Shown: positions 16,002 to 59,725 of the stretch, in pieces
Layout: every line of letters starts with the position of its first letter
Numbering within the stretch: the stretch's first letter is position 1
Notes under the pieces: model-generated
What the model saw: the letters and a program-made list of their open reading frames with translations, nothing else
Databases searched by the model: none
Told to the model about the DNA's origin: nothing
Position numbers and translations under genes: made by a program
IMG/VR virus record: IMGVR_UViG_3300045988_094266
Source: a virus
Strand: one strand, 5' to 3'
DNA: 59,849 bases

Positions 16002-16030
16002 TGACAATCTAGTTTTTTTTTGTTATTATA
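16002..16030 (+). promoter_or_regulatory. Promoter TTGACA-17-TATTAT at the head of the plus-strand module
   Basis: Read directly. An AAAGGAG RBS and the ATG at 16054 follow. Confidence 0.5.
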
Positions 16031-16053
16031 TGAGTATAAAAGGAGATGACAGT

Positions 16054-23315: not shown

Positions 23316-24005
23316 ATGGCTAAGAGTTCTAAAAGATTAGGTAATGCCACTTTTGTCCAGTATGGATATGGTCAAGTGGAGCCAAACCATCTTTCCGCTC
23401 CAAGAAATGGTCAAGTATATGCTCAGCTTCCCGCAGCTAGCGCTATTGAGATTCTTGAGAACGGTCAATTTGTAAAGTATGATTATGCAAAAGGCGTATG
23501 CGATTTTAGTACGGAAGCTACTTCTGGCGCCTGGATGATGGTATTTAATGAAGTAAAGATTTATAGAGATCGCGAAACTGATGCTGATTTTGCTATGATT
23601 AAGGATAATTATAATGCTCGTGTATATAGTCCAATTGGACAAACAGTTTCTACACTTGCTACAATAAGTGATTATACCGGAGAAGCTGTACGCGAAGGTA
23701 GTGATGTAGCATATAAGAAAAATATGGAGACATTTACTTATCCTGCATTGATGCCAGAAGGAACTAAAATGGTACCTCGCGTAATTAAGATTAGTATTGG
23801 TGATATTTGGACTACTAATACCATTAAGGCTAATGCCGGAGAGCTTGCAGTAGGCGATCGTCTAAAGATTGATACTGATGGATATTTAACTAAAGATACT
23901 GAAACTTCTGCTAAAGGTGGAGATTTAGATCCTATCTTTGCAGTAGTAAAAGTGTATACTATGCCAGATCTTCAACCTGGTGTAAAAGTACAGCGTGTAG
24001 GTTAA
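23316..24005 (+). CDS. Abundant head protein (scaffold or decoration candidate)
   Basis: TAG-free, with a strong AAGGAGG RBS, sitting directly upstream of the major capsid gene. Confidence 0.45.
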   Translation: MAKSSKRLGNATFVQYGYGQVEPNHLSAPRNGQVYAQLPAASAIEILENGQFVKYDYAKGVCDFSTEATSGAWMMVFNEVKIYRDRETDADFAMIKDNYNARVYSPIGQTVSTLATISDYTGEAVREGSDVAYKKNMETFTYPALMPEGTKMVPRVIKISIGDIWTTNTIKANAGELAVGDRLKIDTDGYLTKDTETSAKGGDLDPIFAVVKVYTMPDLQPGVKVQRVG

Positions 24006-24024: not shown

Positions 24025-25077
24025 ATGTTAGATAAAGCTAATTTACTTAGTTTAATGAAAACTGTCGCTAATGCAAATCCTTCTGGTACCTATAGCTATC
24101 AAGGAGAGTCTTTTAGCTATGACGCTTTAAATACTACTTTGCGTAATGAGCTAAATGAATTTGTTGGCACAGATGAACTTTATAGAGAAAATAAAAATAC
24201 TCTATTCTCTTTAATTGAGCAGACTATGGACGAAGTTGTTCCTAATCGTTTACTCAATTCTTATGGCAATTTTGCTGAGATTAGAACTTTCGCACAAGGC
24301 GACAAGCCTGTATTTACTCGTAGAACTGGACTTACTCGCGCTAAGCAATTCATTACTCGTGTGGGGCTTGCTGGTGTGTATGAGACCTTTAAGCTTGGTT
24401 CTGAGAGCTTCGAAGTTGGAACAAGCGCCATTGGTGGAGCTGCTCGTATCGGATTTGAGGAGTTCCTTGATGGAAGAGTAAACTTTGCAGAACTTACTCA
24501 AATTGTAACAGAGGGTATGCAAGAGCTTATTTATAGAGAGATTGCTCAAGCTCTTATGGGTTCTATCAATCAGCTTCCCGCAGCAAACCGTTGTGCTGTT
24601 GCTGGTTTTGACGAACCAACTATGGATTATCTTGTAAATACTGCTACTGCTTATGGTCAGCCAACTATTTATTGCACTCGTGAGTTTGCAGTAAAAATGA
24701 TTCCAGATAATGATGCTTGGATTTCTGACAACATGAGAGATCAGTATTGGGGAACTGGTTATCTTGCAAATTACAAGGGAACTAGAGTGGTAATTCTACC
24801 CCAAACTCTTGAGGATGAGACTAACTCCAAAAAGATGATCGATCCAGGTTATGCTTGGATTATTCCTGGTGGAGCTGAGAGCCGTCCTGTAAAAGTTGCT
24901 TTTGAGGGTACTACCCACGTGCGCGAACGCGATGATAATGACGACTGGTCTCGTGATATTCAGGTTTACCGTAAGGTTGGTGTCGGTGTAATGATGGCGA
25001 ATAACATCTTCTCTTATGTTGATACTGAACTTCAAGGCGAGCTTGATAATACTAACCCAAATCCAAATAATGGTTAA
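24025..25077 (+). CDS. Major capsid protein (HK97 fold, SPP1 gp13-like)
   Basis: 350 codons, TAG-free, with a strong RBS. RVVILPQTLEDETNSKKMIDPGYAWIIPGGAESRP resembles the SPP1 gp13 family. Confidence 0.65.
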   Translation: MLDKANLLSLMKTVANANPSGTYSYQGESFSYDALNTTLRNELNEFVGTDELYRENKNTLFSLIEQTMDEVVPNRLLNSYGNFAEIRTFAQGDKPVFTRRTGLTRAKQFITRVGLAGVYETFKLGSESFEVGTSAIGGAARIGFEEFLDGRVNFAELTQIVTEGMQELIYREIAQALMGSINQLPAANRCAVAGFDEPTMDYLVNTATAYGQPTIYCTREFAVKMIPDNDAWISDNMRDQYWGTGYLANYKGTRVVILPQTLEDETNSKKMIDPGYAWIIPGGAESRPVKVAFEGTTHVRERDDNDDWSRDIQVYRKVGVGVMMANNIFSYVDTELQGELDNTNPNPNNG

Positions 25078-25141: not shown

Positions 25142-25675
25142 ATGAAAAATAGTTGCACTGTTTATAATAAGAGCGCAGGTCGTGTTGTATATAGATTGCC
25201 TGAATTGGGCGTGCGCCGTATGTTTTATCCTGGAGAACACAAGGAACTTGAAGTATCTGAACTAGAAAAGCTAGTACAAACGCCTGGAGGCCGCAAATTA
25301 ATTTATAATTACTTACTTGTAGATGATAGAGAGATTGTTGAATATCTTATTAATGGTAGGGTTGAACCAGAGTATTGGATGAAAGAAGAAGAGATTGATT
25401 CTTGGATGAATACGTGTTCTTTAGATGAATTTAAGGATGCTCTTGATTTTGCTCCAGAAGGCACTAAAGATCTGATTAAATCCCATGCTATTTCTCTTCC
25501 TTTAAATGATATGTCTAAAAGAGATGCTTTGGAAAAACAATTAGGATTTAATGTTACTAAAGCATTAGAATTAACAGCAGATGATAAAAAGAATCCTAAG
25601 GAAGAGAAACCTGTAAGAAGAGTGTCAACTACAAGTGAGGATACTCCAAAACGCAGAGTAGCTATTTCTGATTGA
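25142..25675 (+). CDS. Hypothetical head-associated protein
   Basis: 177-codon TAG-free ORF. Confidence 0.5.
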   Translation: MKNSCTVYNKSAGRVVYRLPELGVRRMFYPGEHKELEVSELEKLVQTPGGRKLIYNYLLVDDREIVEYLINGRVEPEYWMKEEEIDSWMNTCSLDEFKDALDFAPEGTKDLIKSHAISLPLNDMSKRDALEKQLGFNVTKALELTADDKKNPKEEKPVRRVSTTSEDTPKRRVAISD

Positions 25676-28825: not shown

Positions 28826-30217
28826 ATGCGTTTTGGTATTCGTGAGATTTGCGATGTAGTACTTCGTGCCAAAAGCTATCAGACTTTAGGTAATCGTAAG
28901 TTCTATAAAAATGAACCAGTTTTGTACTTTGACACTTTAAGAACCTCTACTCTTGAAGGTGCTGCAACAACTGTATACGCACAGGGCGGACGTGGATATA
29001 CTAGATTGATTGCTTGGGAAGGTGAGCGTACTCTAACATTTACAATGGAAGATGCTTTACTTTCTCCAGAGAGCTTCTCTATTCTTTCTGGTGCAGGTCT
29101 GCTTGATGCAACAAAAGAAGCTCCAATTTACGTTCATCAAACTTCTCAGGTAGAAGTTGAAACAGCTAACACTATCGTAATTCCTGATAAAGCCTGCTGG
29201 AATGGATTTGCAGATCATGAAAATGAAATGTATCATCGTTCTGCTGACATTTTTGTAATGGTATTAGGAGATGATGGTCAAGTTAATGCTGAACCATGCA
29301 TTCCTGTTTCTGTTTCTTATACAGAGGACGGAAAATCAACTTTAACTTGTTATTCTCATGCGGGAGTGCTCCCATCTGGTACTATCGTTTTAGTTGACTA
29401 TTATGTAAAGCGCACTGGTGGCGCCCAGATGATTGAGATTACCGCTGATAAGTTTGGTGGAAACTATTATCTTGAAGCTTCTACTCTATTCCGCCGTGAG
29501 AGCGATGGCGTAGATATGCCTGCTGAATTTATTATTCCTAACTGTAAGGTTCAGAGTAACTTCACATTCAGCATGGCTGCTAACGGTGATCCATCTACCT
29601 TTACATTCACAATGGACGCTTTCCCAGACTACACTAAGTTTGATCAAACTCATAAAGTTCTTGCCGCTATTCAGGTAATTACTGATGAAACTGGAGAAAC
29701 CGAAGGTTCTCGTGAGCCATGCTCTGAGAATGTTGGTACTTATGAGAGTGAAGCCGCTGATGTAACTGTAAATTTTGTTTCTAACAGTGCCACAGAGGCG
29801 GAACTTGATGTAACTGGTACTGTAACAGGAAAGGCTTATGATACTGAGGCTTATGGAGATACAATTCCAGAAGCCGCACAAATTAGCCTCCAAATTCCAG
29901 TAGAGAGCGATAGTACCAAGTATACTGTAGTAACAACTAACCCAGCATATGAGAAATACTTCTCTACTGATGACCGTATTGAGGGCAATACAAAGACTCA
30001 AACCGTAGATGGCGCAGAATTGGCAGATGGCCTATTAGTAATTCTTACTAAGGAGAGTAATACAACTCCTATTACAGCTAAGATTACTAAGATTAACGGA
30101 GACTTTGAGAAGAGTTATACTATTAATAACAAGCTCAGTTTTGCAGAAAGCACAAGCACTTATTCTGGCGCAAAAATGCGCAATAAGCTAGTCTCTGTTA
30201 GCGATGACACCATTTAA
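28826..30217 (+). CDS. Major tail protein candidate (tube or sheath-like)
   Basis: 463 codons, TAG-free, with a TAAGGAGG RBS, followed by a strong terminator. It lies upstream of the chaperone and tape measure genes. Confidence 0.45.
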   Translation: MRFGIREICDVVLRAKSYQTLGNRKFYKNEPVLYFDTLRTSTLEGAATTVYAQGGRGYTRLIAWEGERTLTFTMEDALLSPESFSILSGAGLLDATKEAPIYVHQTSQVEVETANTIVIPDKACWNGFADHENEMYHRSADIFVMVLGDDGQVNAEPCIPVSVSYTEDGKSTLTCYSHAGVLPSGTIVLVDYYVKRTGGAQMIEITADKFGGNYYLEASTLFRRESDGVDMPAEFIIPNCKVQSNFTFSMAANGDPSTFTFTMDAFPDYTKFDQTHKVLAAIQVITDETGETEGSREPCSENVGTYESEAADVTVNFVSNSATEAELDVTGTVTGKAYDTEAYGDTIPEAAQISLQIPVESDSTKYTVVTTNPAYEKYFSTDDRIEGNTKTQTVDGAELADGLLVILTKESNTTPITAKITKINGDFEKSYTINNKLSFAESTSTYSGAKMRNKLVSVSDDTI

Positions 30218-31784: not shown

Positions 31785-32324
31785 ATGAGTGAAATTACTT
31801 TTAAAGATTTGGGTTTGGAGCCTAAAATTAAATATACAGAAGTAAAAATTGGAGAAGATAAGATTTTATCTGTGGTTAATTATCTTCCGATTGCAGATAA
31901 AACAAATCTTATTACTTTTGTCGCAGATTTAGCGATAGATGAGATGACTGGGTGTTTTAGTCCGGTAAGAGTAGAAACTTATTTTGCTATTGCTATTTGC
32001 AGATGGTATGGTGGAATTGTTTTTGAGCAAGAAGATGTGCATGAAAATATTGCCAAAACTTATGATACACTAGAGACTAATGGTGTTATTGATGCAGTTA
32101 GAAGTGCTATTCCAGTAGATGAATTGTCTTTTATTGAAGACTTAGTTAGAGATACTTTAAGCGATATAGCAAGATATAATAACTCTGCCGCAGGCATTAT
32201 CCAAATGATGAATAAAAATGCTTCTGGATTAGATACATATATTACTGATATAATGGAAAAAATTAAAAATGGTGAGAATCTTGAAACTTTATCAGTAATT
32301 AAAGATGTGGTTGGAAAAGATTAA
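31785..32324 (+). CDS. Tail assembly chaperone candidate
   Basis: Acidic 179-aa TAG-free protein immediately upstream of the tape measure gene. Confidence 0.4.
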   Translation: MSEITFKDLGLEPKIKYTEVKIGEDKILSVVNYLPIADKTNLITFVADLAIDEMTGCFSPVRVETYFAIAICRWYGGIVFEQEDVHENIAKTYDTLETNGVIDAVRSAIPVDELSFIEDLVRDTLSDIARYNNSAAGIIQMMNKNASGLDTYITDIMEKIKNGENLETLSVIKDVVGKD

Positions 32325-32429: not shown

Positions 32430-35400
32430 GTGGCTAATAATAGAAGATTAAATTATTAGATTGGGTTTGATGTTGATACTGCTGAACTTTACAGAGCAGT
32501 AAACGAGGCAGTTCAATCTTTAAATAAAATCAGTGCCGGTTCTAAAGTTACAGCAGAATTGCGACAAGCTTCTTAGTCTGCGCTAGAGTTATCTACTTAT
32601 ATGCATTAGGCATTTAATCAAGGGACTGGAAAGTTAGATTTAGTAGCTTTTGAAAATAGTTTAAAATCTAGCGGAAGAACTCTTAAAGATTATGCCAACT
32701 CGTTAATTTCGATTGGTACCGAGGGGCAAAAGGCTTTTTTAAATGTAGCAACAGCGATTCAAAAAGCGGAGCTTCCAGCATTGCGCACTGGCAAAATATT
32801 TGATTAGTTATGGATTACTATGAAAAATACTATGAGATGGCAGATTACCTCCACCGCGTTAAATAGTTTTGTGGGAACCATAGAATCAGCTTATGGGTAT
32901 GCACAAGATCTAAATGAATCATTAACAAATATTCGTATAGTTACTGAAAATTCTGCGGAAGACATGGCTAAATTTGCTCAATAGGCAAATGAAGCAGCAA
33001 AAGCATTAAGTACAACTACTGTTGAATATAGTGATGCTGCTTTGATTTATTATCAATAGGGTCTTACTGAATAGGAAGTTTTAGATAGAACTGAAACTAC
33101 TATTAAAATGGCTAATGCCGCAGGAATTAGTGCATAGACCGCTTCGGATCAGCTGACCGCAGTTTGGAACAACTTCTATGATGGAAGTAAGAGTCTTGAA
33201 TATTATGCTGATGTAATGGTGCGTTTAGGCGCCGATACAGCGTCTAGCTCTGATGAAATTTCAGAAGGTATCCAACAATTTGCCTCTGTAGCAGATACAG
33301 TTGGATTAAGTTACGAATATGCTGCTTCTGCTCTTGCTACTGTCACTGCTACGACACGTGAGTCTGCTAATACAGTAGGTACAGCATTTAGAACTTTATT
33401 TGCTCGTATCCAAGGCTTAAATCTTGGAGAAACTCTCGATGATGGCACTACATTAAATAAATATTCTAAAGCTCTTGAAAAAGTGGGTATTGATATTTTT
33501 GATGTTAATGGTGAGATTAAAACTATGGATACCTTACTTGATGAAATGGGTTCAAAATGGGAGACCTTATCTAATGACTAGTAGATTGCTTTGGCTTAGA
33601 CCGTAGCCGGAGTTCGCCAATATACTCGTCTTATTGCACTTATGGATAATTGGGATTTCTTTTAGGAGAATTTAGCTAGTGCTTATGGAGCAGAGGGATC
33701 TCTTTAGGAACAGGCAGATATTTATGCTGAATCTTGGGAAGCTGCTAGAGATAGAGTAAAAGCATCTGCTGAGGATATTTATGATAGTGTCATAAATCCA
33801 GATTTGTATATAAATGCAGATAATGTCTTAACTCCATTTTTATCTGGTATTGCAGACGCCATTGATGCAATGGGAGGGTTAAATGGTATTTTAGCTAGTA
33901 CCGCTTTGTTGATTAATGGGATTTATGGAAATAAGATTGCTGAATCAATGCGTTCTATGGTGGCTAATATAAAAGTTCTATCTGGATTAGAGTAGAATAG
34001 AGCGAGAAATTTGTAGGCATCAGCGGCTGAGATAGCAACTCAATTAGGCTTAACAAACTCTATGTCTTAGGCTGAAAAAAATCTTTTTAATATTATGGTT
34101 GACTAGGCTAATATATAGGGCCAAATAAATAGTAACTACGACGCGATGGATGCTAATGGTCGTAGATTAATTTAGACAGAACAGTTAAAATTAAGTATTT
34201 TGCAAGATTAGTTAAAGACATATTCTTAGTAGTAGATTTAGTCTAGGGAAAATGTATTAAATCTTAGAGATACTATTTATTTTAATATAGGAATAAAAGA
34301 TGGCTGGCAAGAAGAAGTTAAAGCAGAAATAAATAAATTTAATAGTAGAAATAAAAGTAATCAAATTTAGTTAAATATAAGAGCTAATAGTAACCTTGAT
34401 AAAATTTATAATGATGTTACTACTTAGTTAACTAGTTTAATTTAGCAATCTACAAAACTTGATACAGTGTATCAAGAATTTAAAAAACTTGAAAGCGCTG
34501 GAACTGCGACTAGAGACAGCCTTCGTAATTTATTATCTAGTGTTACGGGCAAAGAACATAATTATGCTTAGATTGAATGGCTGACTTAGCAATTAGAGGG
34601 GTTAAAAAATTAGTCTCAAAATGCAAAATTGCAAATTCGTGAACTTGGGACTATTTTATAGACTATGGGAGCCGATCCAAGAGTAGTTACTTCTTATATT
34701 AATGAATTAACAAAATTGGAGTCTGTTACTGCAAGAACAACTGAACAAGAGGCTCGATATTAGGAATTGTTAGCGAAGTTCCCTAGTGTAATTACAAAAG
34801 CATTAATACCAACGAGAGATTGGGCTACAATATTGGTTTAGGTTGGAAGTTCTCTTTCTAGTTTAACTATGATTATGAATGCTTTTTAGAGCATTGGAAG
34901 AATTTTTTCTGATGAAGATATGACTTCAACTGAAAGAATTGTAGCTTTGTTTACTTCTCTTGGTATGTTACTACCCTCTATTATTTCTGTTTATAAAACT
35001 TTAAATATGTTAACTACTGCTCATGCTGTTGCAGCAGCGGCGGACGCCGCGGCAACAGCAGTAGAGGCTTTAGCGACAGAATAGCTTGCTATGGCGAAGC
35101 AGAAAGCCGCTATGGCTTCCGGCATCTTAACTGCTGCAATTATGGTAGCAATAATAGCGATTACTGCAATAACAAGTGCTATAAAAGCATAGCATGAAGC
35201 AACCTTGGCTGCTGCTTAGGCCTCTATTGATGCGGCAAATGCAAAAAAAGAAGAAGCACAAGCGAATAGAGAGTTAATTCAATCTACTCAAAATGCCTTA
35301 TCTACTTATCAAGAAACTGGGGATGGAAAAGAAGAGTTAGATGATTTAACTCGTTAGTTGGCTGAAGCGTATGATTTAGAAGGCAGTGCATTAGCTAGAC

Positions 35401-38400
35401 TAAGTGGATAGTATGAAGATTATAATAGTGTTTTAAAAGCTGCTCAAGAAGCTCAAAGAAGAGAACTTTAGGAAACTTTGTAGTCCCAAGAAGAAGCGTT
35501 ACGTGCGAATGAAACTCTCATTCTTGAAACCGCGAGAGAGGGCGTGGGCCACGTATATTTTGGTGGAAATTATGAGGGGTCTTTTACTGGTTTTAATGAT
35601 TTTTGGAATGGCACCGAAGAAGATACTGCATCTAATATTCTTCTCAATAATGTGGACGCTTTATATAGTAGTTGGAATGACAATGTAATTGGCGGAAGAA
35701 GAAACTTAGCTTTTTCTATAGACCCAAATAATACAGAAGAATTAATTAATTTTTATGATCAATTAAATAATGCTATTAATTTGATGAATAATAGCATGAC
35801 TGTTTCGGAAAGAGGAGCATCTGGACTTTACAATGCTGCTGTTGAGTGGCGAGATAAAATGGAAGAGGTTGTCACTCAATATAAAGAAACTAAAGAGAGT
35901 ATAAATGCTATTCGGGTATAGCTTGGAGAGTTTAATAATTAGACTATTACCGATGATCAAGTATCAAGTTTAGCGTAGTATAAAATTTGGGTTAACGAAG
36001 TTACAGAGGCGCTCACTTCTGCTGGATATGAAGGCGAAGAATTAAACGATATAATCAATGATTTAGTATCTACTTCTCTGAATCCTGATATTAGTGGCTT
36101 TAAAGATATTTATGACGCAATTTTAGAGGTTGAAGAATTAGTCAATGATGAAGAATTAAAAAGTAATCTTGAATCTATTTTTACAGATGAAAATTATGAT
36201 ACTTCTGTATTAAATTTATTAAATTGGGGTGCTTTAACATAGGAGACTTTTTAGGATGCCTATGACAGTGCTAAAAAATATACTGATGCTATTTCCGAAG
36301 TTGAAAACGCAACAGAATCTTTAACTACTGCACAATCTGCCTTAGAAACTCTTGGAGATAGAGATTTAGATCGAGAAGGATTAGAATCACTTTCTAAAAC
36401 TGTTGATTGGGGAAATCAAGAAAAAGGAATTATTGATTTTAATTAGTTCCTTGCTATGACTTTAGTTGAACAATAGAGTTATTTATAGAGGATTATAAAT
36501 GAGTCCTATTAGGCTGTCAATAATGGATTAATAGATTAGATTAGTGAAGCAAAAAAGAGAATAACTGAGCAATAGGATATTTTAAATCAATATAGCGATT
36601 CTGAATTAGAACGTGCAGAAAAAGTTGTTTATGCTTGGGAACAAGTTCGAGAAGCGTATAATGATTATCAAGGTAGCTTAAATGGCGGAGAAGAATTTAA
36701 TCTTGATAATTATACGATTGATTGGGATTTGTTAGGTGAAAATTTTGATTGGGAATCTTTTAAAACCGAAACTGCGGATAACGTAGCTAGTGCATTTGAG
36801 TATGGGACAAAAGAAGCTCAAGATAAAATTGATACTGTAACTTTAGCAGAGTAGCTAATTAGTAGTTTATAGGATGATATAGATTCTAGCACAGCTTAGT
36901 TACAAATAAATGCAGAATTAAATTTTTAGAATCAATTAGATTAGATTGAAAATTCCGTTGACGGAATTGTAAGTGTATTCGATGCTATTTCTGATGGAGT
37001 AAGCTAGACTACCAATGAAGCTGGAGAACAAGTTTGGAGTTTTAGTAGAGAAGCAGCTAAGGCTATTGAATCTATCTATCCAGGTTTTATAGCTAACGCG
37101 GAATTATTAAGGGATGGTACATTTGCTTTAACAGATGAGATGTATCAAGCATTTTATAATAGTTCTTAGGGGCAATTAGCTGTTGATGCTGATACCAAAT
37201 CTAATATGCTTCAAAATCTTATTTCTCTTTTAGAGGCTAAACGAGGAGAGGCTGAAGCTTCGCTTAAGATCGCTGATCAGCTAGCTTCTGGAGAATTAAC
37301 TATAAACGAATTATCAGATGAGCAGAAGAGAACTTTATTAGCGGGATATGTAAATGCTTAGAATCTTGCTAATGGAGAAATGTTAGATGATTAGGTCAAT
37401 AGTTTAACCGCACAAGATACAAATTAGTAGACTTTATGGACTAATGTTAGCGAGTATTCTGCTTAGGGCGCGCAGAACATGAGTACTAATGTATAGTTAA
37501 ATACTCAAAATGTTCTTGCTAATCTTGAAAAAATTAGAGATGCGGCATATGCTACTGGAATTCAAGTATCTCAAATAGGAACTGATAATGTTACTAAGCA
37601 AGATTTTGATACTTCTGCTGTTTCTTTTGATAGTTCGGCTGCAACAACAATAGATACGAGTAACGCTAATGATTTCTTAAATTCTTTAACTGCAAATTTA
37701 GATGTAGAACCTGTAACCGCAGACGATTTAAATATTTATGGTGATGCTAGTGAGGCACTTGAAGCTAAGCAATCTTAGGCAGTTGGAGAAGCGCTAAGGG
37801 CCATTTATTAGGGGAGTATTGATGGGTATAATGAGGCTATAGCAGCAGCAAAAATAGCCTAGAGCAAATTATTAGATTCTATTGATGGAGCTATAGAAGG
37901 GGTAAAGGGAAGTTCAAGTGGCGGAGATAATGAAGGCACTAAGTATGACGAAGAAGATGAAAAGACTCTAAAGGATATTGAAGATAGATACCATGAAATA
38001 ACTCGCGAAATTGAGAATTAGAACGATTTATTAGATGATATTGGAAATAATATAGATAGAGCCTATGGCGCCAATAAACTTCAAGCATACTAGAGAGAAC
38101 TTCAAGAATTAGAGAAATAGCAAGCTAATTATAACAAACTACTTAATGAAGCTGAAACTTATCTTACAAAAGACTAGGCAGATCTTCAAGGGTTGTTTAA
38201 TAATTCTCTTATTTTTGATGAAAATGGAGAAATTGAAGGTTATCAAAGTGTTCTTCAATCTATAATAGATGATTATAATAATAATTTCTTAGCGGATTAT
38301 AATGCTTTTTTAGTTGCCTTTAGTAATCTTACTAAAGATGAATAGGAAGCTAGATAGGCAGAATATGATAGTTGGCAGTTACAAAAGGAAGCTGCTGATG

Positions 38401-41157
38401 AATTATTCCAAGCTCGTTAGGATGCTCTCGCCCAATATGAAGAAACTCTTGACAAAATTCAAGAAGTAAAGGACGAATAGGAAGAACTAGAGAGAAGCAT
38501 CGCAGACAATAGATTGAGTTAGATTGAATATAAACTTGAAGTTGTAATAGAAATAAAAGATGCTAAAGATGCTGTTCGTGAATTAACTAAAAAGATTGCA
38601 GAATCATTTGGTGATGAATTAACTCATGGTATTGAAGTCGCTCGTATTGATGAAAATAGTGTGAACGAAAATATAAAAATAATCAAGGATTATGAAGAAA
38701 CGCTTAAAAGTTATCAAGAAGAATTGGCTAACGCAACGGATGCGACTGATATTGATGGAATTATAAGTAAAATATCTGATTTATAGGGTAAAATAATTTC
38801 TACCGCAGAAGCTCTACTTGATTGGGTAGAGGGTCTTGAAGAAATGTTGCCAGATGCATTAGACGCTGCATCTGAAAGATTCGCTGAATTTACTGATCAA
38901 CTTGATCATAATGAATCAGTTCTTGGACTTATAAAAGAATTGTATACACTTTAGGGGGTTACATATAAAACCGAAGAAGGATTTGAATAGCTCCAAAAAG
39001 TAAGCGAAGAGACAATGAAAGCTCAAATAGCAAATGCGCAATTAAATAAACAGTGGTATGATGGTATTAAACAGGAGCTTTTAGAAGCCTAGAGCGCGTT
39101 AGATGCACTAGGCGGCGATGAAACAGATCCGGCATATGATGGTTTAAAAGCCAATCGAGATGCACTACTAGAAGAATATAATGAAGCCCAATAGGCGATG
39201 TTAAGTTCCGCGCAAGCCGCTATGGAAACTGCACAAGAAATGTATACTTAGGCTATTGAAAGAGCCGTATATGAATTTGGATAGGCGGTTTCTGGTGGAG
39301 TTGGCTTAGATTTGCTACAAGACAAGTTCGATCATTATATTGAGCAAGAAGATAGATATTTAGATAAAGTAAATGAGGCATATGAAGTATCTTCTTGGTA
39401 TAATAAACTTCAATAGGATATTGATAAAGCTACTAATTCTAAAATGAAAGATTAGTTGAAATAGTTACAAGAAGAAATTGATATTCGTAGAGAGAATAAT
39501 ACTTTATCTGAATATGATCTAGAAATTCTTGAAGCCAAGTATAATGTTCTTTAGGCCCAGATGGCTCTTGAAGATGCTCAAAACGCGAAAAATCAGCTTA
39601 GATTAGTGAGAGATAGCCAAGGTAACTGGAATTATCAATACACCGCAGATGCGAGCTAGATAGCGGATGCGGAATAGAATTTACTTGATGCAGAGAATGA
39701 ATGGTATAACATAGCTAAACAATAGGTTGAAGATGTTACTGGAGAAATTATTTCTACTTGGCAGGAATGTCAGGATAAAATAAAAGAGATTTATTCTGAT
39801 ATGACCTTGACTGACGAGGAAAGATCTGCCCGCGCGCAAGAAATCTATTCTTATTATACGCAGAAGGTTAAGGATCTAGAGAACGAAAAACAGATTGCTA
39901 TTTAGGATATGACCGAAGCCGGCAATAAAGCCTTAATTGATATGGCTATTGTTGCGGGAGACGAGGTAAGTGACCTAACTGGAATTACAAGTCAAGAAAT
40001 TCAGGATATTATAGCTAATTCTGGCTCTAGTATTATTGATTTGTTATTATCTGATAATGAATAGATTCAAGATATAGTTGGAAGTAATACAAAACTTATT
40101 GATTTATTTGATAATGTTTTCGCAAAAGATCTTGCTAATATGACTTCTAATGCTGGAAATTTTGAAGATTTTCTATCTAAGGCCATGGACGAAGCAAGTG
40201 GAGCGATGGAAGATTATCAAACTACTGTCTCTGGAGTTGCAGATTAGACTGGAACAAGTCTTGATGATTTAGAAGGTTATCTTGATGATGTTACAACTTC
40301 TACAGAGTTATGTTCTGATGCAGGATCGGAAGCTGTCACTTAGATGTTAGAATAGATAAGCACTATTCAAGATTTAAGTCAAGAATATTTAGACATGGCT
40401 AAATCAGTTAGAGAATATATAAGAGCTCTTGAGGAGGCTGCTAGAGCAGCTGGAAATACAATAGAAAGTGCTGGAGGAATAGATAAAGATGATTTACCTC
40501 CAGCTAATTCAGATCAATCTTCTGATAATAACTCTAGCAATAGTAATAGCGGATCTTCCAGCGGAGGAGCTGGAAGTGGCAATGGAATCCCAGAAGTAGG
40601 AGACGAAGTCATTTATACTGGTGGAACTTATTATCATGATTCTTATGGCACAGATCCAGCAGGTAGACGTGGGCCCGGCAAGAAAGTTAAAATAACTAAT
40701 ATAGCCAAAGGCAGACCATATCCGATTCATGTATAGTCTAATAATTCTGCATATGGTTGGTTAAAAGAAAGTCAAATAAGCGGATTTGATACAGGAGGTT
40801 ATACTGGAGAATTTGATAATGCTAAATTAGCTTTCTTACACGAAAAAGAGTTAGTTTTAAATCAAGAAGATACGAAAAATATTCTCGCGGCGGTTTCTGC
40901 TATAAGAGCTTTTGAACCTAGTTTTATAGCTTCTATAGAGAAAGCGCTTGATGGAAATGCACTATCTATTTCTAATCTTATGGCATCAAGATTAGGATCT
41001 AATACTTAGATTACTCCAGCAGACAACACAGTTGAACCGTATATAAATATTGAGCGAGTTGAGTTCCCAAATGCGACATCTTCTGATGAAATTCAAGATG
41101 CTATTCGTAGTTTAGCTGATGATGCTACTCAATGGGCAAATAGAAGAAAGGGATAAT
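32430..41157 (+). CDS. Tail tape measure protein, about 2909 codons (TAG-containing)
   Basis: GTG start with an AAAGGAGG RBS. Track ORFs 33216, 33804, 35544 and 40395 all lie in one frame. The segment ADVMVRLGADTASSSDEISEGIQQFASVADTVGLSYEYAASALATVTATTRESANTVGTAFRTLFARIQGL resembles the core of TP901-type tape measure proteins. It ends at a TAA. Confidence 0.6.
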
Positions 41158-53606: not shown

Positions 53607-54389
53607 ATGGCTTTATTTAAGATTTTTCGAGGACCAGAAGATAATTTGAATAGTGTACCTCTTCATGAAGGATACGCTTATTTCACAGAAGATAAAGGAA
53701 ATCTCTTTATTGATATTAGTAATGAAGAAGGTGGACGTTTGCAGGTAAATGCTTATGCTGCTCAAGTTCTAAAGAATGATATTACTGAGATTGATATTGA
53801 TGATATTTTTCTTAAAAATATGACTGCCACTGTAGCTCAGGGCGGAACTGGACATAATAGTCTAACTGTAAATGCTTTATTAATTGGTAATGGAACTAAT
53901 GCGGTAAAGATGGTTGAAATTGCGGCTGGTTAGGTTGTTATCGGAAATAGCGAGAATGGTGTAACAGGATTGCAAGGAACTGGCGCTTTATTTGCCGCTA
54001 CAGCTGGCGCTCCGCAATTTGGAACGCTTCCAATTTCAGTTGGTGGAACCGGGGCAATTAATGCAGCAGGGGCGAGAACTAATTTAGATGTGTATAGCAA
54101 ATTGGAAACAGATAACTAGATTAGTGGAAGTACTACGGCAGCTTATCCAGCAACTCTTTCTGCATCAGGTTGGGTATTAAATGAAGATATGTATACATAT
54201 ACTTATTCCAATACTTCTTTAACTTGCGGAAAAGCAGGTAATGTGCCACCTATTATTAGTTATACTTCTAATCTTGAAGAGTATAGTAAAATTGATCACG
54301 CTGATGCATCAGTTGGGGTTGGAATTACCTTTTATACAAAAGAAAAACCAACAAATGATATTGCTATTATTATCATTGATGTAAAATAA
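53607..54389 (+). CDS. Tail fiber protein (1-2 in-frame TAGs)
   Basis: The N-terminus KIFRGPEDNLNSVPLHEGYAYFTEDKGNLFIDI is a common phage fiber N-terminal motif. Downstream it is Gly-rich. Confidence 0.5.
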
Positions 54390-54438
54390 AAAAATGGGGA
54401 GAACCTTAATTTCAAAGGTTCTCCCCATTTTTTATTTC
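54386..54438. terminator. Strong bidirectional terminator at the point where the two strands' genes converge
   Basis: TGGGGAGAACC-ttaatttcaaa-GGTTCTCCCCA flanked by an A8 run and a T6ATTT run. Confidence 0.7.
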
Positions 54439-54533
54439 TCGCAAGGAGGTTTACTATATAAATGATAATGCGGTTTTTCTTCTCCAAACCATTTCCATCT
54501 TAGGTAGTCGTCTAATACTATTGCCAAAAGGCT

Positions 54534-54890
54534 TAAAAAGAACCAGGCGATAGAGAATGGTAAACAAATCTACCCCATAAAATTCAATGGAATATGAGAA
54601 TAATCCCAAATACCTAAGCCTAGTTTTACATTTAATACTAGACCAAAAATTAATTCTAAAGCAGTTATAATTAAAGAGCCTTTTATTCCTTGAGTAAGAA
54701 TGGATTCTTCCCAAAGAATGTTCTCATTCATTAGTCCTATCAATAAAAAACATAAACCGCCTAATAAGAACATAGACCAATGACAGGTTCCAAGACTGAT
54801 AAAAGTTTTATAGAGGAGCTCTATACCGTAATATAGAGTTCCTCCAACCGCGAATAGAATTATATTTTTACTTACTGTCGGTATCTTCAT
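54534..54890 (-). CDS. Small polytopic membrane protein (holin-like?) with one in-frame TAG
   Basis: Three to four hydrophobic segments. The 106-codon track ORF is extended by 11 codons through a TAG. Confidence 0.4.
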
Positions 54891-55530
54891 ATTTTAACTC
54901 AATAGCTTTTAATTTATCTATCGAATCAGCTTCGAATATCTAAGTTTTATATTCTTGCATTAAATGATATTTAGGATATACCGCATTTGAAATAGCTAAA
55001 CTTAGAGCGGATAATTGCTCTAAACTCCATGGCACACATTCTTCGTGTCGAGCGTGCCACTCAAGCGTAGGATTTTCTACTTCAGCCGCGAGAGCGACTT
55101 GATATTGATTGAGATTTAAGCTAATCTCAGACTGGTCCTCCTACGTAATTCCATATTCTTTTCCATCAACCCAAGTTAGTGGGTGGGCAGCAAGATACTC
55201 TGCGAATAATTTCTTGTTTTCCTCTTGTTTGTCATACTTTGCCTAATCTAAATCAGAAGTGAATGTTCCATCTTCTTGATTATATATTGAATAATTAGGA
55301 GTAACATCTGATGGAATTGTTTCTATCTCTAATACTTTTACAGCATTAGATTGATTTAATACATCGGCTTTAATTAGAGTATAATGTGTATCTCCATTTG
55401 AGCCGATAACCCCAGTTCCCTCTTCTTCCTCGCAGGCAACGACAATACCATTTGAGGATTGCAGTTTAATGTAACGTGCTTCTGAAAGAATATCAACTAC
55501 TACATTCTCTCTATTTAATAGAATATACAT
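54868..55530 (-). CDS. Hypothetical protein (3 in-frame TAGs)
   Basis: The 95-codon track ORF extends in frame to a TAA at 54868. Its ATG overlaps the TAA of the RT extension. Confidence 0.35.
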
Positions 55531-55706
55531 TACTTTATTTCAACTCCTTTAAATAATGAACGAAAATAATTGTCCATATCTTGAATTATATAAAAACAAG
55601 TTCCTTTAGAAATATGTGCCCTCCAACCTTGATAGGATTTCTAAATTTCATCTGTTGAAATTTTACCCTCTAGCCATAGCGCTTGCATTTTCTTCAACTT
55701 TCTGCG

Positions 55707-56747
55707 CTAATGAGCCACTTTCTTTTTAAAAGGAATTTGTATTATATGATTAGTGTCTGTGAGATAAAAGTTCCACTTTAAGTATTTTAATGGGGCGTGA
55801 CGTTTGCCGTCCGCGTGAATAGGAGAGATTCTAGTAATAGTAGTCTTTTTCTTATTCATTTTTAATCCTTGCTTATTTAAGCGAACTTCTATTCTCTTTT
55901 CACATTCGGCTAAGTATTGACTGTCATTGTGGAATAAATATAAATCATCCATATAACGACCATAATACTTTATATGTAACTCTTCTTTGATGAAGTGGTC
56001 AATTCCGTTCAATGCTAGCAATGCGAATAATTGTGATGTTTGACTTCCTAATCCAAGACTTTTATTATCATATTCATAGTATTTGCGGCCAGGCTTGAAA
56101 TTAGTGGTACTAATTCTCGTGTATTTGTGCCGTTTACTAATATAATAATCTTTTCCTGGTATGGGAGAGGAATCTTTTGTTAGCTTAAAAGAAAATGTAT
56201 CTATTAAATAACAGCATAGTTGATAAATTCTTTTATCTTTTATCAAACGTTTAGCCGCTTTCTTTAAAGATTTATGGTCAATAGAATCAAAATATTTTTG
56301 AATATCAATTCTTAACCCATAAAAATCTTTTCCTAATCCATATTCTCTATGAGCTTGTTGAAGATGTTTCTTTACTCTTTTTAAAGCAAAGTCTATTCCT
56401 TTTCCTCTTAAAGTAGCACAATTATCGTAGATAAATCTAGGAGTTAATTCTGGTAATAAAACTTGTTCACATAACGCATTTTGTACCAGTCTGTCGTTGA
56501 TATGACACGCTCTTATATCTCTTGGTTTGCCTCGTTCGATTATCGAAAAACAACTAAACACAAGCTATTCGTATTCACACGCTCGCAGATCAGCTTCTGT
56601 TTTTAAAATTGTTTCTATCCTATTCTCTTCAAAATTAATTGTACTATCTTTCCATCGAACGTTTCGGCATACCTTATAAGACGCATCATACATAGTGTCA
56701 AAACTACAAAAACGCTCGAAAGTAGTATCTTGATTTATTTCAGACAT
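55707..56747 (-). CDS. Diversity-generating retroelement (DGR) reverse transcriptase
   Basis: Motifs DRLVQNAL, LGSQTSQ (the DGR-type motif 4, [ILV]GxxxSQ) and the YMDD catalytic box. One in-frame TAG at 56565-67 joins track ORFs 56565..56747 and 55707..56561. The ORF ends at a TAG, so it may read on to the TAA at 55530. Confidence 0.7.
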
Positions 56748-57056
56748 ACTTTCTCCTTATCATGTAGCTATAGTGGTAGCTACTCGAGCTCCACGTCTAC
56801 AGTCTTACTTTATCCACTTTTTCAGTGAAATGGTTAAGTTCTCCTTAGATGAAAAGGCAGATCTACCTATAGTATATTATTCGATAGTTGTAGAGCAAAG
56901 CTCTTTAATGGTCTCTCAATCTCTTCCCCACATAGTGAGTGCAATCCAGAGTAAACCTTAATTAGATGGATAATAATATACTCCGGGGTACTATTTAGGC
57001 GTTGCTCGTTTGCGCTGCTCCGCAGCTTAACTCGCAACATGATAGCTCCATCTAAT

Positions 57057-57156
57057 CCGGCGCGAGCCCGTTGCTGTTGTTGTAGTTGTTGTTGTTCGCA
57101 GATCCATCGTTGTTGACATTGCAAACGTTGTTCGAGTTGTTGTAGTTACGGGACCG
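57057..57156 (-). repeat. DGR template repeat (TR)
   Basis: 100-bp copy of the variable repeat. All 20 mismatches sit at TR adenines on the coding (minus) strand. The frame is AAC-rich (NYNNSNNVCNVNNDGSANNNNYNNSNG). Confidence 0.8.
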
Positions 57157-57186
57157 AAAGATACAGAACTTAACCGCAGAAAAATA

Positions 57187-57681
57187 TTATCGACCTCTCC
57201 TATGGGTTTTAGGAGCCGAATATCTATGCTCGACTATAAGTTTATCTCTATTTTTTCTATCTTGGATTGATTCTTTTACTTTCTTAGTCAATCTAGCTAG
57301 ATGTTCAAAAGATCTTCTTTTCTTTTTGCTGTTCTGAGCATACTAATAAATACATAGGTCGATTTGTCGAAATATACTATCACAATATTCAATCGCTCTA
57401 TTGTGATATTCATTTCTTTTTGTAAGGGTTTCTTTATCTTTTAAGTTTATCCTACACGCCTCATAACAGCAAGCGTGTATACCCTTTCCGCATTTAATTA
57501 TATCGTACCCGAACGCTTGAAGAGGTTGACCCTCTCCAAGCAGTCCAGGTTTGCAGATTTGTTTTCCATCCTTATCAAATTCTCTAGGACGAGTTAAGAC
57601 TAAAATGTAGCCAACCAATTCACGGGCTTTATAAAGACAGTCTTGTTTTGATAGGTGTCTATCCTTTACTTTTACAGACAT
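57187..57681 (-). CDS. Avd-like DGR accessory protein candidate (call rests on position only)
   Basis: It lies between the variable and template repeats, as avd does in Bordetella-type DGRs. The track ORF ends at a TAG and continues to a TAA at 57187. There is no recognisable Avd motif. Confidence 0.3.
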
Positions 57682-57763
57682 TTAAAATTTCCCTCACTTG
57701 AATATATAATTTTTTTATTGGACAATTTAACCTTAACTGTCCCGAATTGTTATTTTGCTGTAT

Positions 57764-59514
57764 TATCCAATGACGAAAGCCGGCGCGAGCCCGCCGCTGC
57801 TGTAGTAGTTGACGTAGGTCGCAGACCCATCGCCGTTGACACCGCAAACGCCGCCCGAGTGGTCGTAGTAACGGGACCGTTCCCAATACCACATCGTTGA
57901 ATTCGTCAACGAACCATTGGCGTTCATCTGGTATTTAACTCTAGTAGAGTTGCTTGTATAGTAACTATAGGCCGTCTAACTTCCTCCAACAGTCCACTCC
58001 TAATAAGAACTAGCATAGCCGCTAGAGCTAGTAAATCCCATCTCACATTCAGAAGGTAGCCAACATTTTGCAGTTGTTTGAACATCCGCAGTATTATTCT
58101 AATTACCATTACTAGCAGAACTTGTCTTCTTAGTAACAGATTTAATAGAAGCGGTTGCGCTACATCTATTACCAAAATCATTGCACAAGGATTGAGCGGT
58201 TGAACCATTCCATAACGCGTTACTACCAAATGATGTACTGTTAGGTAAAGTTCCCGCAGTCTGGAAAGTTAATGTTCCAGTTCCATCCTAATCAGCACCA
58301 ATACAAATCATTGTAGCAGCGTTGGCACCAAGTACCGCACTAGAAAGACTTACAAGTTTCTTTTTACCTACACATTTCTTTCTTTCACTGGAAGAAGCCT
58401 TAGCTGCCCAGGTCTTTAATCCAGCCCACCACTTAGCATCACCAGTAGCAGTTTCAGAACCCCACTCCCAATAGCTTGCTGTTACTGTAACAGTCTTGTT
58501 ACCTGGAGCAGTATGGTTAGTTCCGGCCGCAACTTTAATAGTAATCGTGGTAGAAGAAATAGCTGTACTGCCATCACCTTTAATAGTAAGAATATTACCA
58601 CTTAAAGAGAGGGTAAGACCAGTAACACTAGTTGGAGTATAGCTAATAGCTCCATCTCCCGCGCGAGTAATAGTAACTTTAACGCCAGCACTATAATTAT
58701 CTCCATCAAGAGCAACAGAAGTTGGATTTACGGTTAAACTACCCGCGGCTTTATTAATAACCCAGTTTACATCAAGATTATCGGTTGTCTTATCAGCCCA
58801 TCTATAGTTGCTCTTTAGAGTAAATGTAGCTGTATAAGTTCCTGCGTTAGTAGCGGAAGTAGTTCCACCAATCGTCATATAAGTGGTATTGAAATTATTC
58901 CAATAAGAAGTTCCACTTACTGATTGACTATTACCTGTATAGGTAAGATTACTTTTCCAGGTTGGTTTAGCGACAGATTTACGCTCAACAGTTACCGTAA
59001 ATTTCGCAGATTGAGTTACTTCATTCTCTGTATAAGAAACAGTAATTTGCTAGCTGCCAACTGTAGTTAAGGATGTTGGTGAGCACGTATAACCTGTGAC
59101 AGCCGCGCTTTTACTATCAGAGTAACTCGCTGTAACTACCATTCCTGTTGTTTGAAGGGTGTCGCCATATTCATAGGTCATCTTAGTTGGGTTAGTAGTA
59201 ACCTAAATACTAAGAAGTTTATGAATAACAGTTACCTTCTATGCAGTTTGACAAGTTTCACCGAGTTCTGAATAAGTAATAGTTACTTCAGTAACTCCGT
59301 CTGTTAAAGGACTTGGAGTAACTTGATATCCAGTTACTTCTGCTGTTGTTACAATAACACCATCCATGCCGTAAGATGCGGTAACTACCATTCCAGCAGG
59401 ATTAAATGTGTCACCAGCAAGATAGCTCGTTTTATTAGGGGGAGTGGTTACTTCAATTTTTACAAGAGAGCCTCCACCTTTTCCACCCTACTCAGCTAAA
59501 ATACATTTAGGCAA
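57764..59514 (-). CDS. DGR target protein: tandem bacterial Ig-like domains with a C-terminal VR (about 6 in-frame TAGs)
   Basis: AAGGAGG-TTG start at 59514. Ig-like repeats (MVVTASY...VTGYT..P). The VR is in frame and the ORF ends GLAPAFVIG then TAA. Confidence 0.55.
57780..57879 (-). repeat. DGR variable repeat (VR) at the 3' end of the target gene
   Basis: Encodes ...RYYDHSGGVCGVNGDGSATYVNYYSSGGLAP. The GC-rich IMH-like end GGGCTCGCGCCGG is identical to the TR. Confidence 0.8.
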
Positions 59515-59687: not shown

Positions 59688-59725
59688 TTGGGAAAAGGGT
59701 AAGAAACCCTTTTCCCAAAAGTGAG
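59688..59725 (-). terminator. Terminator hairpin GGGAAAAGGGT/ACCCTTTTCCC
   Basis: Followed by AATTTTTTGTT on the minus strand. Confidence 0.5.

Follow-up and report, generated by a model that had tools for sequence, protein, structure and literature searches.

A DGR in a TAG-recoded siphophage carries in-frame TAG codons in its reverse transcriptase and target genes

The window, i.e. the whole stretch of 59,849 nucleotides from IMG/VR virus record IMGVR_UViG_3300045988_094266 that was analysed, carries a complete DGR on its minus strand, in which a target gene is followed by an Avd-like accessory gene, a template repeat (TR) and the reverse transcriptase (RT) gene (Table 1). Two further genes complete the unit, the first of which begins with an ATG (55530-55528) that overlaps the TAA of the RT gene as TAATG, and every gene of the unit contains at least one in-frame TAG. 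The hairpin upstream of the target gene insulates the unit from upstream transcription. A scan for sigma-70 promoters gave no more matches than shuffled sequence, and none of them was convincing as a promoter of the unit.

Table 1 Features of the DGR unit and its surroundings (coordinates refer to the window; codon counts are those found at the aligned position in relatives).
Feature	Position	Strand	Remarks
Strong hairpin terminator	54389..54433	.	19-bp stem; closes the minus-strand DGR unit; the convergent plus-strand structural block also ends here
Last gene of DGR unit	54432..54890	-	152 codons, 1 TAG; membrane protein; ABC_trans_CmpB (PF06541) match
Gene downstream of RT	54868..55530	-	220 codons, 3 TAGs; weak DUF4376 match; synteny conserved in relatives
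DGR reverse transcriptase	55530..56747	-	405 codons; RBS AAGGAG; stop TAA 55530-32
TAG, RT codon 369	55641..55643	-	CAG 20, CAA 5, TAG 2
TAG, RT codon 347	55707..55709	-	TAG 27, CAG 4, CAA 3
TAG, RT codon 61	56565..56567	-	TAG 18, CAG 13, CAA 3
Template repeat (TR)	57055..57156	-	AAC-rich: 17 AAC, 1 AAT, 2 TAC
Avd-like accessory gene	57187..57681	-	164 codons; four-helix bundle with beta-hairpin insertion; between target and TR
TAG, Avd-like codon 113	57343..57345	-	End of helix 3; GAA, CAA or AAA
DGR target gene	57763..59514	-	583 codons from TTG 59514; GGAGG RBS; stop TAA
Variable repeat (VR)	57778..57879	-	Target codons 546-579; 3' end is the GC-rich IMH GGGCTCGCGCCGG
TAG, target codon 513	57976..57978	-	33 codons upstream of VR
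TAG, target codon 505	58000..58002	-	
TAG, target codon 472	58099..58101	-	
TAG, target codon 409	58288..58290	-	C-terminal domain; CAA 21, TAG 10
TAG, target codon 155	59050..59052	-	Inside second Big_3; CAA 20, TAG 5, CAG 2
TAG, target codon 104	59203..59205	-	
TAG, target codon 92	59239..59241	-	
TAG, target codon 9	59488..59490	-	CAA 21, TAG 5, CAG 1
Terminator-like hairpin	59688..59718	-	13-bp stem and T-run; upstream of target gene

The RT matches RVT_1 (E=3e-16), and its best PDB match is the Bordetella DGR enzyme bRT (8ub7, E=3.5e-15); it contains the motifs GSQTSQ (GxxxSQ type, residues 234-239) and YMDD (YxDD type, residues 265-268). An earlier reading of this DNA, made from the sequence only, had pointed to the in-frame TAG at codon 61, to a TAG at codon 347 at which the RT would terminate, and to a reading frame continuing from there to the TAA that overlaps the next gene. 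The first and the last of these observations were confirmed. The termination at codon 347, however, turned out to be wrong: this TAG is a sense codon, the standard-code RTs have CAG, CAA, GAA or AAG at the corresponding position and then continue, and so does the RT of L030, a standard-code phage with the same cassette (coverage 0.83 vs 0.84). A third TAG, at codon 369, had been missed, which brings the total to three, and the left boundary of the RT and of the DGR feature is 55530 rather than 55707.

The comparison of RT lengths shows that the proposed C-terminal extension exists. The homologues, which measure about 400-405 aa, do not end where the first TAG falls, the outcome named beforehand as speaking against a recoded RT, but span all three TAG positions and have Q at each of them. 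The thumb (X) domain can be aligned with that of group II intron RTs up to residue 396, and standard-code DGR RTs (approximately 33% identity) align out to residues 395-405. The RT of L030 contains 0 in-frame TAGs and has its C-terminus at the same place; this phage is a natural control. Termination at codon 61 would delete every catalytic motif, and termination at codon 347 would delete the thumb domain. The 284-aa ORF with a GTG start (55707-56561) was rejected as a stand-alone RT, given the conservation and the homologues that span all three TAGs.

In the predicted target protein, a pair of Ig-like Big_3 domains is followed by a beta-rich centre and a C-terminal domain with a C-type-lectin fold, which contains the VR; public gene calls begin at ATG 59391 and give 542 aa. 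About six in-frame TAGs had been attributed to the Ig-like region. Such codons do occur there, but the gene contains eight, of which four (codons 9, 92, 104 and 155) belong to the Big_3 region or its immediate surroundings and four (codons 409, 472, 505 and 513) to the C-terminal DUF6273/C-type-lectin domain. If TAG were not read through, the target would end at codon 9 and the Avd-like protein, with its single TAG, would lack helix 4. The label Avd-like rests on structure, namely a four-helix-bundle fold that is matched by many unrelated proteins; there were no Avd sequence matches in Pfam, NCBIfam or PDB.

TR and VR match over 102 nt, and every mismatch in the core coincides with a TR adenine, none with another base. 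The VR lies at the 3' end of the target, on the C-type-lectin fold, and is followed by the GC-rich IMH, as characteristic of a DGR. The cores of TR and VR contain no TAG, and since the TR is built from AAY codons, adenine substitution cannot convert any of its codons into a stop codon of any kind; that the repeats contain no TAG and cannot gain one in this way had been noted before and holds. The absence of TAG from the repeats is nevertheless of no significance. At the TAG density of the target, 0.47 TAGs are expected in the 34 codons of the VR (P(0) = 0.63), Gln codons as a possible source of TAG are lacking in both repeats, and the absence is thus expected by chance and from the AAY-codon design.

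Besides those of this window, we compared the repeats of five near-identical genomes (L001, L002, L005, L006 and L007). They have five different VRs, which all differ from that of the window as well, at TR-adenine positions, while the TRs are identical except for one base of the IMH; this C/G polymorphism co-varies in TR and VR, the variant being copied into the VR. The RTs of L005 and L006 carry the same three TAGs. The VR diversifies at TR adenines and the TR is kept, which argues that the DGR is active and that read-through happens, and the region appears to be a canonical, currently active DGR.

The window is part of a TAG-recoded siphophage of approximately 145 kb, presumably of Bacillota. 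Stop-to-stop frames of at least 100 codons cover 54% of its length under the standard code, the longest comprising 465 codons; once TAG is read through, the longest frame in the whole window increases to 2914 codons, and a single ORF of 2851 codons contains 96 TAGs. The read-through pattern extends through 40 kb in which essential virion genes are located, among them portal, terminase and the 2851-codon ORF. The early block at about 1.4-14.3 kb is TAG-free, with about 25 ORFs that have no internal TAG and two TAGs located 1-4 codons ahead of a backup TAA. In the RT, Avd-like and target genes, TAA and TGA are absent from the coding frame apart from the terminal TAA of each gene, whereas they occur 1-37 times in the non-coding frames; the in-frame TAGs of these three genes exceed chance.

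The codons that relatives have at the positions of the TAGs of the window are TAG (657), CAA (333) and CAG (133), followed by Lys and Glu codons, counts that are pseudo-replicated across related loci; TAA or TGA was never found there. CAA and CAG together account for 466 of the approximately 1500 non-TAG codons and form the top class, the remaining two-thirds or so being diverse. This comparison with relatives indicates that TAG encodes Gln (genetic code 15). Proteomic proof that Gln is inserted at UAG is known only for crAss-like phages (PMC9523058).

Its TerL (44-50% identity) places the phage in the group of Enterococcus EF1/H1, Geobacillus E3 and phAss-1, and a crAss-like affiliation was rejected on these grounds. 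A megablast search with 12 kb of tail genes gave no match among GenBank phages. The only clue to the host is that relatives were binned with MAGs of Oscillospiraceae, Eubacterium and Clostridia, and hosts of these groups presumably use the standard code.

A suppressor tRNA is present in the phage lineage. A tRNA(CUA) is encoded at 17433-17508 of L104 (IMGVR_UViG_3300045988_091188), a contig that is 99% identical to the window, with a score of 59.8 bits against the Rfam tRNA model, a loop CU-CUA-AA and G73, and it has conserved counterparts in 7 additional relatives. For the phage of the window, the suppressor is deduced from this 99%-identical relative and was not seen in the window itself, its position corresponding to approximately 26 kb left of the left end of the window, among ORFs that are TAG-free. 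ARAGORN detected no tRNA in the window, within ±10 kb around the RT of 16 relatives or in the first flanks on both sides of the window, and Rfam at the gathering threshold detected none in the window and three flanks. A direct scan of about 130 kb for CUA anticodon hairpins, which ended short of the tRNA(CUA) locus, gave no tRNA-like match. In overall identity, the suppressor is less similar to the phage tRNA-Gln (0.68) than to tRNA-Cys (0.76). Since its match to tRNA-Gln(UUG) is limited to acceptor positions 2-6 and the 3' end, its charging with Gln, which we infer, is based mainly on the codon alignments.

Taken together, we consider it very likely that this is a working DGR in a gut phage whose middle and late genes read TAG as a glutamine codon, and that RT and target become complete only with the suppressor tRNA. 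Early genes, which have no internal TAG, would be translated by a host that presumably uses the standard code. The phage tRNA with the anticodon CUA, encoded among TAG-free genes, would then decode TAG as Gln, and only afterwards would the full 405-aa RT, the Avd-like protein and the receptor-binding target be produced. The RT-Avd complex would copy the TR RNA with adenine-specific errors and replace the VR. The earlier suggestion that full-length RT and target need amber suppression is supported by the CAG and CAA codons of relatives, by L030, by the tRNA(CUA) and by the active VR. In its simplest form, this explanation would regard the TAGs of the DGR genes as ordinary CAA/CAG-to-TAG drift in genes expressed after the code switch, and production of the DGR proteins would as a consequence be confined to the suppressor-positive phase.

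One might go further and see in recoding a lock that times hypermutation. With TAG present in RT, Avd-like protein and target alike, neither cDNA synthesis nor retrohoming would be possible until the suppressor has accumulated, and diversification of the receptor-binding protein would be tied to the late stage of infection, at which replicated genomes are plentiful; we regard this as rather improbable. Unlikely as well is that the TAGs represent a selected regulatory gate, which would permit mutagenic retrohoming only late, once the suppressor is present and many genome copies exist, and would avoid host-toxic RT activity. A gate would fit with the occurrence of TAG at RT codon 61 in 18 and at codon 347 in 27 of the 34 related loci, with a TAG in every gene of the unit and the insulation of the unit by terminators, and Borges et al. 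have proposed that recoding regulates late genes. However, orthologous RTs contain between 0 and 17 in-frame TAGs, with sites alternating between CAG/CAA and TAG, which looks like neutral turnover, and the standard-code phage L030 has the same DGR ungated. Moreover, the TAG share of Gln codons is lowest in the late region for RT (0.17) and Avd-like gene (0.12), others being at 0.45-0.7, which a gate would not predict.

The UAG codons might also be read by near-cognate decoding via the abundant phage tRNA-Gln(CUG) and tRNA-Gln(UUG), which adjoin each other in the tRNA array of relatives, perhaps with reduced RF1 activity. The lack of a tRNA in the window would agree with this, and many TAG-recoded phages have no detectable CUA tRNA, which was detected in 13% (PMC9610469). 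We nevertheless consider this explanation very improbable, as a well-formed tRNA(CUA) is found in the 99%-identical genome and conserved across the clade, and an ORF with 96 TAGs would need efficient decoding, for which near-cognate reading is unlikely to suffice. Hardly credible, and effectively refuted by the codons of relatives, the conservation of the RT and the diversification of the VR, is a decaying pseudogene cassette in which TAG is a true terminator, although translation table 11 does split the RT into fragments of 60 aa (56565-56747) and 284 aa (the GTG-initiated ORF) and the target into pieces of 50-196 aa, and some public RT entries are truncated (P0021, 334 aa; P0065, 298 aa; P0054, 343 aa): the reading frames exclude TAA and TGA entirely but not TAG, the same pattern extends over the virion genes, the protein is conserved across every TAG with CAG or CAA there in relatives, the VR diversifies in genomes that bear the TAGs, and the lineage encodes the tRNA(CUA).

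A working DGR in a TAG-recoded phage is not without precedent, as recoded DGR RTs and targets have already been published (Lou et al. 2023; zeta crAss-like phages 2025). DGRs are known in TAG-recoded phages that persist in the infant gut (Lou et al. 2023, bioRxiv 10.1101/2023.08.07.552389). The RT described there (MKRYNNLF...) belongs to a different lineage and is at first sight unrelated to the one found here, and that study relied on a time series, whereas we deduced activity from comparing genomes across samples and identified a sister phage that has the same cassette and uses the standard code. In Crassvirales (zeta crAss-like phages 2025), amber suppression was described in 7/18 DGR RT genes, along with suppressor tRNA(CTA) genes. 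The DGRs of these phages share with ours the GxxxSQ motif of the RT, and their tail-fibre targets have Ig-like and C-terminal C-type-lectin domains; they are, however, mostly without Avd, while the phage studied here is non-crAss by TerL and has an Avd-like gene.

The Bordetella BPP-1 DGR (bRT-Avd-TR-mtd), whose bRT is the top structure match, resembles the present one in the adenine-specific changes from TR to VR, in the AAC codons and in the location of the VR in a C-type-lectin fold. BPP-1 uses the standard code, in contrast to the TAG-recoded phage. Furthermore, bRT comprises 328 aa compared to 405 aa; the RT described here has about 50 additional aa inserted ahead of GxxxSQ, and its thumb is longer. 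No similarity to bAvd could be detected in the sequence of the Avd-like protein, which contains the beta-hairpin insertion, and the target has N-terminal Big_3 domains, unlike that of BPP-1. Among recoded phages, phAss-1 (proposed Phassvirus) and Agate-type phages are gut siphophages of about 135-150 kb with approximately 30 tRNAs including tRNA-Sup(CTA) (PMC10607447; Borges et al. 2021/2022). As in the phage investigated here, it is chiefly the virion genes that use TAG for Gln, and recoded phages have close relatives with the standard code; the TerL, however, is only 44% identical to that of phAss-1. The phAss-1 paper contains no mention of an RT or retroelement (PMC10607447).

These results do not change what is known of DGRs or of recoding, but they add a non-crAss lineage that presumably infects Bacillota to the recoded phages known to have an active DGR. 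Standard-code gene callers and DGR finders split or miss this RT, and truncated calls are already present in public databases. For this reason, annotation with code 15 is needed before DGR surveys of recoded phages, a need that was also noted in PMC12386605. The recoded phage and the standard-code phage L030 constitute a natural pair with the same cassette, which could be used to test the effect of recoding on the timing or amount of DGR activity.

Under the standard bacterial code (code 11), stop-to-stop frames of at least 100 codons cover 54% of the window and the longest reaches 465 codons. When TAG is treated as a sense codon, frames of up to 2914 codons appear, and treating TGA in the same way brings no improvement of the window's open frames. 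The gene map under TAG read-through comprises three blocks, the last of which is a convergent unit with the DGR. The target, the Avd-like accessory gene, the TR, the RT and two downstream genes lie between strong hairpin terminators (59718-59688 and 54433-54389).

Features of the window under TAG read-through, with the fraction of Gln codons written as TAG
Feature	Coordinates	Strand	Content	TAG share of Gln codons
Block 1	~1.4-14.3 kb	minus	no internal TAG	
Early block				0
Block 2, virion	16-54.4 kb	plus	TAG-rich; sigma-factor-like gene, terminase-like gene, portal, 2851-codon ORF	
Most virion genes				0.45-0.7
Sigma-factor-like gene	16030-17100	plus	11 TAGs	
Five virion genes	23316-24005, 24025-25077, 25142-25675, 28826-30217, 31785-32324	plus	no TAG	0
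2851-codon ORF	32601-41156	plus	96 in-frame TAGs	
Block 3, convergent unit with DGR	59.5-54.4 kb	minus		
Target	59514-57763	minus	583 codons from TTG with GGAGG RBS; 8 in-frame TAGs	0.41
Accessory (Avd-like) gene	57681-57187	minus	164 codons; 1 in-frame TAG (codon 113)	0.12
TR	57156-57055	minus	102 nt; no TAG	
RT	56747-55530	minus	405 codons; 3 in-frame TAGs	0.17

In the three DGR genes, TAA and TGA occur in frame only as the terminal TAA of each gene, yet both turn up often in the two other frames, and this asymmetry with TAG is far from chance. The two RT sites named by the sequence-only reading (56565-67 and 55707-09, codons 61 and 347) are indeed in-frame TAGs, but a third one at 55641-43 (codon 369) had been overlooked. 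For the target, about six TAGs had been placed in the Ig-like region; TAGs do occur in or beside this Big_3 region (codons 9, 92, 104 and 155), but the gene has eight, four of them in the C-terminal domain (codons 409, 472, 505 and 513), and codons 156-408 and the VR (codons 546-579) carry none. The absence of TAG from VR and TR also holds, but it is uninformative, since 0.47 TAGs are expected per 34 codons at the TAG density of the target (P(0) = 0.63); moreover, neither repeat contains a Gln codon and hence a source codon for TAG.

The RT had been taken to terminate at the TAG at 55707-09, which is wrong: four agreeing lines of evidence place its end at the TAA at 55530-32, which overlaps the next ATG as TAATG. 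Comparison with homologues, of which there are more than a thousand, shows that the C-terminal extension is real, most among the matches listed being 398-410 aa long. In an alignment of 26 RT sequences, the three TAG positions are occupied by Q, with K or E in a few sequences at 347, and the last 58 residues are among the best conserved (YQGWRAH, MDNYF..LFKGVEI). Because gene callers may have rendered TAG as Q, the DNA of related loci was also checked; there, every codon at positions 61, 347 and 369 that is not TAG is CAG or CAA. Standard-code phage RTs with 30-35% identity align as far as residues 395-405, GenBank phage RTs (Phage nd12, Roseburia phage Shimadzu) align across residues 8-403, and the part past codon 347 aligns to the thumb (X) domain of group II intron RTs through residue 396. 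A natural control for full-length products is provided by the related locus L030, whose RT has CAA at all three positions, no in-frame TAG and an end one residue away from that in the window; its phage shares the gene order around the DGR and is not recoded (coding coverage 0.83 under code 11 vs 0.84 with TAG as Gln, code 15).

The RT contains the motifs GSQTSQ and YMDD, and its best relative of solved structure is the Bordetella bRT. The TR/VR match spans 102 nt, with all core mismatches at TR adenines. The TR codons (17 AAC, 1 AAT, 2 TAC, plus GAT, GGA and AGC) cannot be turned into TAA, TAG or TGA by adenine changes, as had been claimed for TAG; such a stop-proof TR is standard DGR design and nothing special to recoding. 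Five genomes whose RTs share 90-99% identity with that of the window have an unchanged TR, and each has a different VR, the changes lying solely at TR-adenine positions. In two of them, L005 and L006, the RT has the window's three TAGs as well, and VR diversification in TAG-bearing genomes indicates that functional RT is produced and that read-through therefore occurs. We also observed a C/G polymorphism in the IMH, the GC-rich stretch closing the VR (GGGCTCGCGCCGG vs GGGCTGGCGCCGG; window 57063-57067 / 57786-57790 region; L001, L002, L005 and L006). The base always matches between TR and VR of one genome, so this base is either transferred from TR to VR or held in agreement between the two copies.

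Across ten genes common to the window and related loci, the window's in-frame TAGs stand opposite TAG (657 times), CAA (333) and CAG (133), with Lys and Glu codons next in number, and never opposite TAA or TGA; the counts are inflated by kinship among the sequences, but their ranking is as TAG = Gln would predict. Early genes stop at TAA, and in the two cases of a TAG close to the end a TAA comes 1-4 codons later, which fits TAG still being a stop early in infection. The TAG-free genes of the virion block, whose neighbours write 45-70% of their Gln codons as TAG, include phrog_4088 (350 aa) and a virion structural protein, phrog_2729 (463 aa), and lie shortly before the 2851-codon ORF. They probably encode the most abundant structural proteins (capsid, major tail protein, chaperone); if so, codons that depend on suppression would seem to be selected against where expression is very high. 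The ORF itself follows a TAG-free 179-aa gene and, from this position, presumably encodes the tape-measure protein; it makes heavy demands on any suppressor. The sigma-factor-like gene (phrog_5767, E=3e-38; HNH/Endo VII-like C-terminus) opens the plus-strand block, and its TAGs imply that this putative late transcription factor is itself suppression-dependent. To the right of the window, about 9.5 kb past the RT, a RuvC-like resolvase gene (L001 289-768) has 9 TAGs in 159 codons, a density above that of most virion genes; adjacent replication-type genes have 0-2.

The terminase TerL is 44-50% identical to those of Enterococcus phages VRE9_4, H1 and EF1, Geobacillus E3 and phAss-1, and related contigs measure 132-151 kb. 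The phage is accordingly a large siphophage of Bacillota type from the phAss-1/EF1 neighbourhood; these TerL relatives led us to reject a crAss-like phage. MAG bins of close relatives (Oscillospiraceae, Eubacterium, Clostridia) provide weak host evidence.

No tRNA was found in the window or within ±10 kb of the RT in relatives. Walking outward on IMGVR_UViG_3300045988_091188 (locus L104), whose RT is 99% identical, revealed an array of 27 ARAGORN-called tRNAs and a tmRNA starting about 10 kb left of the window and, in a second small cluster some 26 kb past the left edge of the window, a tRNA(CUA) (L104 17433-17508; Rfam tRNA score 59.8 bits). It has the anticodon loop CU-CUA-AA, a mismatched 1:72 pair, a G73 discriminator and an encoded CCA, and it matches the phage tRNA-Gln(UUG) at acceptor positions 2-6 and at the 3' end; over the whole sequence, tRNA-Gln does not stand out among the phage tRNAs by similarity. 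Seven more relatives carry CUA tRNAs with this design. The adjoining ORFs are TAG-free, as expected for expression before the code switch. Within the clade these tRNAs take two forms, 75-76 nt (L104) and 91 nt with a long extra arm (L107 1652-1742, L145 19029-19119), which share the 5' UGC, the 3' GCUGCCA and the anticodon loop.

The earlier observation is partly confirmed, its TAG counts and RT end needing correction, and its interpretation that full-length RT and target require amber suppression is supported. The account that fits best is ordinary DGR retrohoming, with the three proteins of the cassette completed only once the phage amber suppressor is active. The TAGs themselves look like drift, because RT orthologues contain from 0 to 17 of them, single sites flip between CAR (CAA/CAG) and TAG, and recoding among the late genes is lowest in the RT and the Avd-like gene; a selected timing gate on the DGR is a less probable reading. 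The conserved CUA tRNA makes it unlikely that UAG is read by near-cognate decoding with no suppressor. A pseudogene cassette is excluded by the CAG/CAA codons at the RT TAG sites of relatives, the lack of alignment to TAA or TGA, the diversifying VR and the barring of TAA and TGA, but not TAG, from the reading frames.

A DGR inside a TAG-recoded phage is a combination already described, by Lou et al. 2023 (bioRxiv 10.1101/2023.08.07.552389) and for zeta crAss-like phages (2025). The preprint on late-gene recoding (Borges et al. 2021) mentions neither DGRs nor reverse transcriptase, and the phAss-1 paper (PMC10607447), an account of the neighbouring phage group, is silent on any RT or retroelement. 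What the window contributes is another phage lineage, an Avd-like protein that sequence searches do not pick up, and a standard-code sister phage carrying this cassette as well.

The tRNA arrays of relatives showed further peculiarities. The tmRNA (L104 6708-7023; Rfam RF00023, 114.6 bits; tag peptide DNDYFENYLAA) lies inside the array and is kept across the clade (L103 2025-2340, L106, L111, L112, L116, L145); a ribosome-rescue RNA in a stop-rewriting phage may merit a look. In L089, a twister-P1 ribozyme-like match (15127-15184, plus strand; 51.7 bits, below the gathering threshold of 67.2; E=1.9e-9) lies directly 5' of tRNA-Ser(GCU) at 15190. The closest relative carries a tRNA-like gene (L103 4894-5010, plus strand) with normal acceptor, D and T arms, in which a 55-nt insert containing a hairpin with the 8-nt loop UCUUUAAC replaces the anticodon arm. 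More distant relatives share a conserved 74-nt tRNA close to where the main array ends (L107 9902-9975, L111 8563-8636, L112 9902-9975, L118 6755-6828) with the 8-nt anticodon loop GUUAAAAG, for which ARAGORN calls a 4-base anticodon, 'taaa'. Finally, an element between tRNA-Val and tRNA-Gln (L103 4440-4565, plus strand), flanked by the inverted repeat GACGCAT/ATGCGTC, holds a T-arm-like GGTTCGAATCC and then acceptor-like and anticodon-like hairpins (weak Rfam tRNA match, 23.4 bits) and is possibly a permuted or degenerate tRNA.
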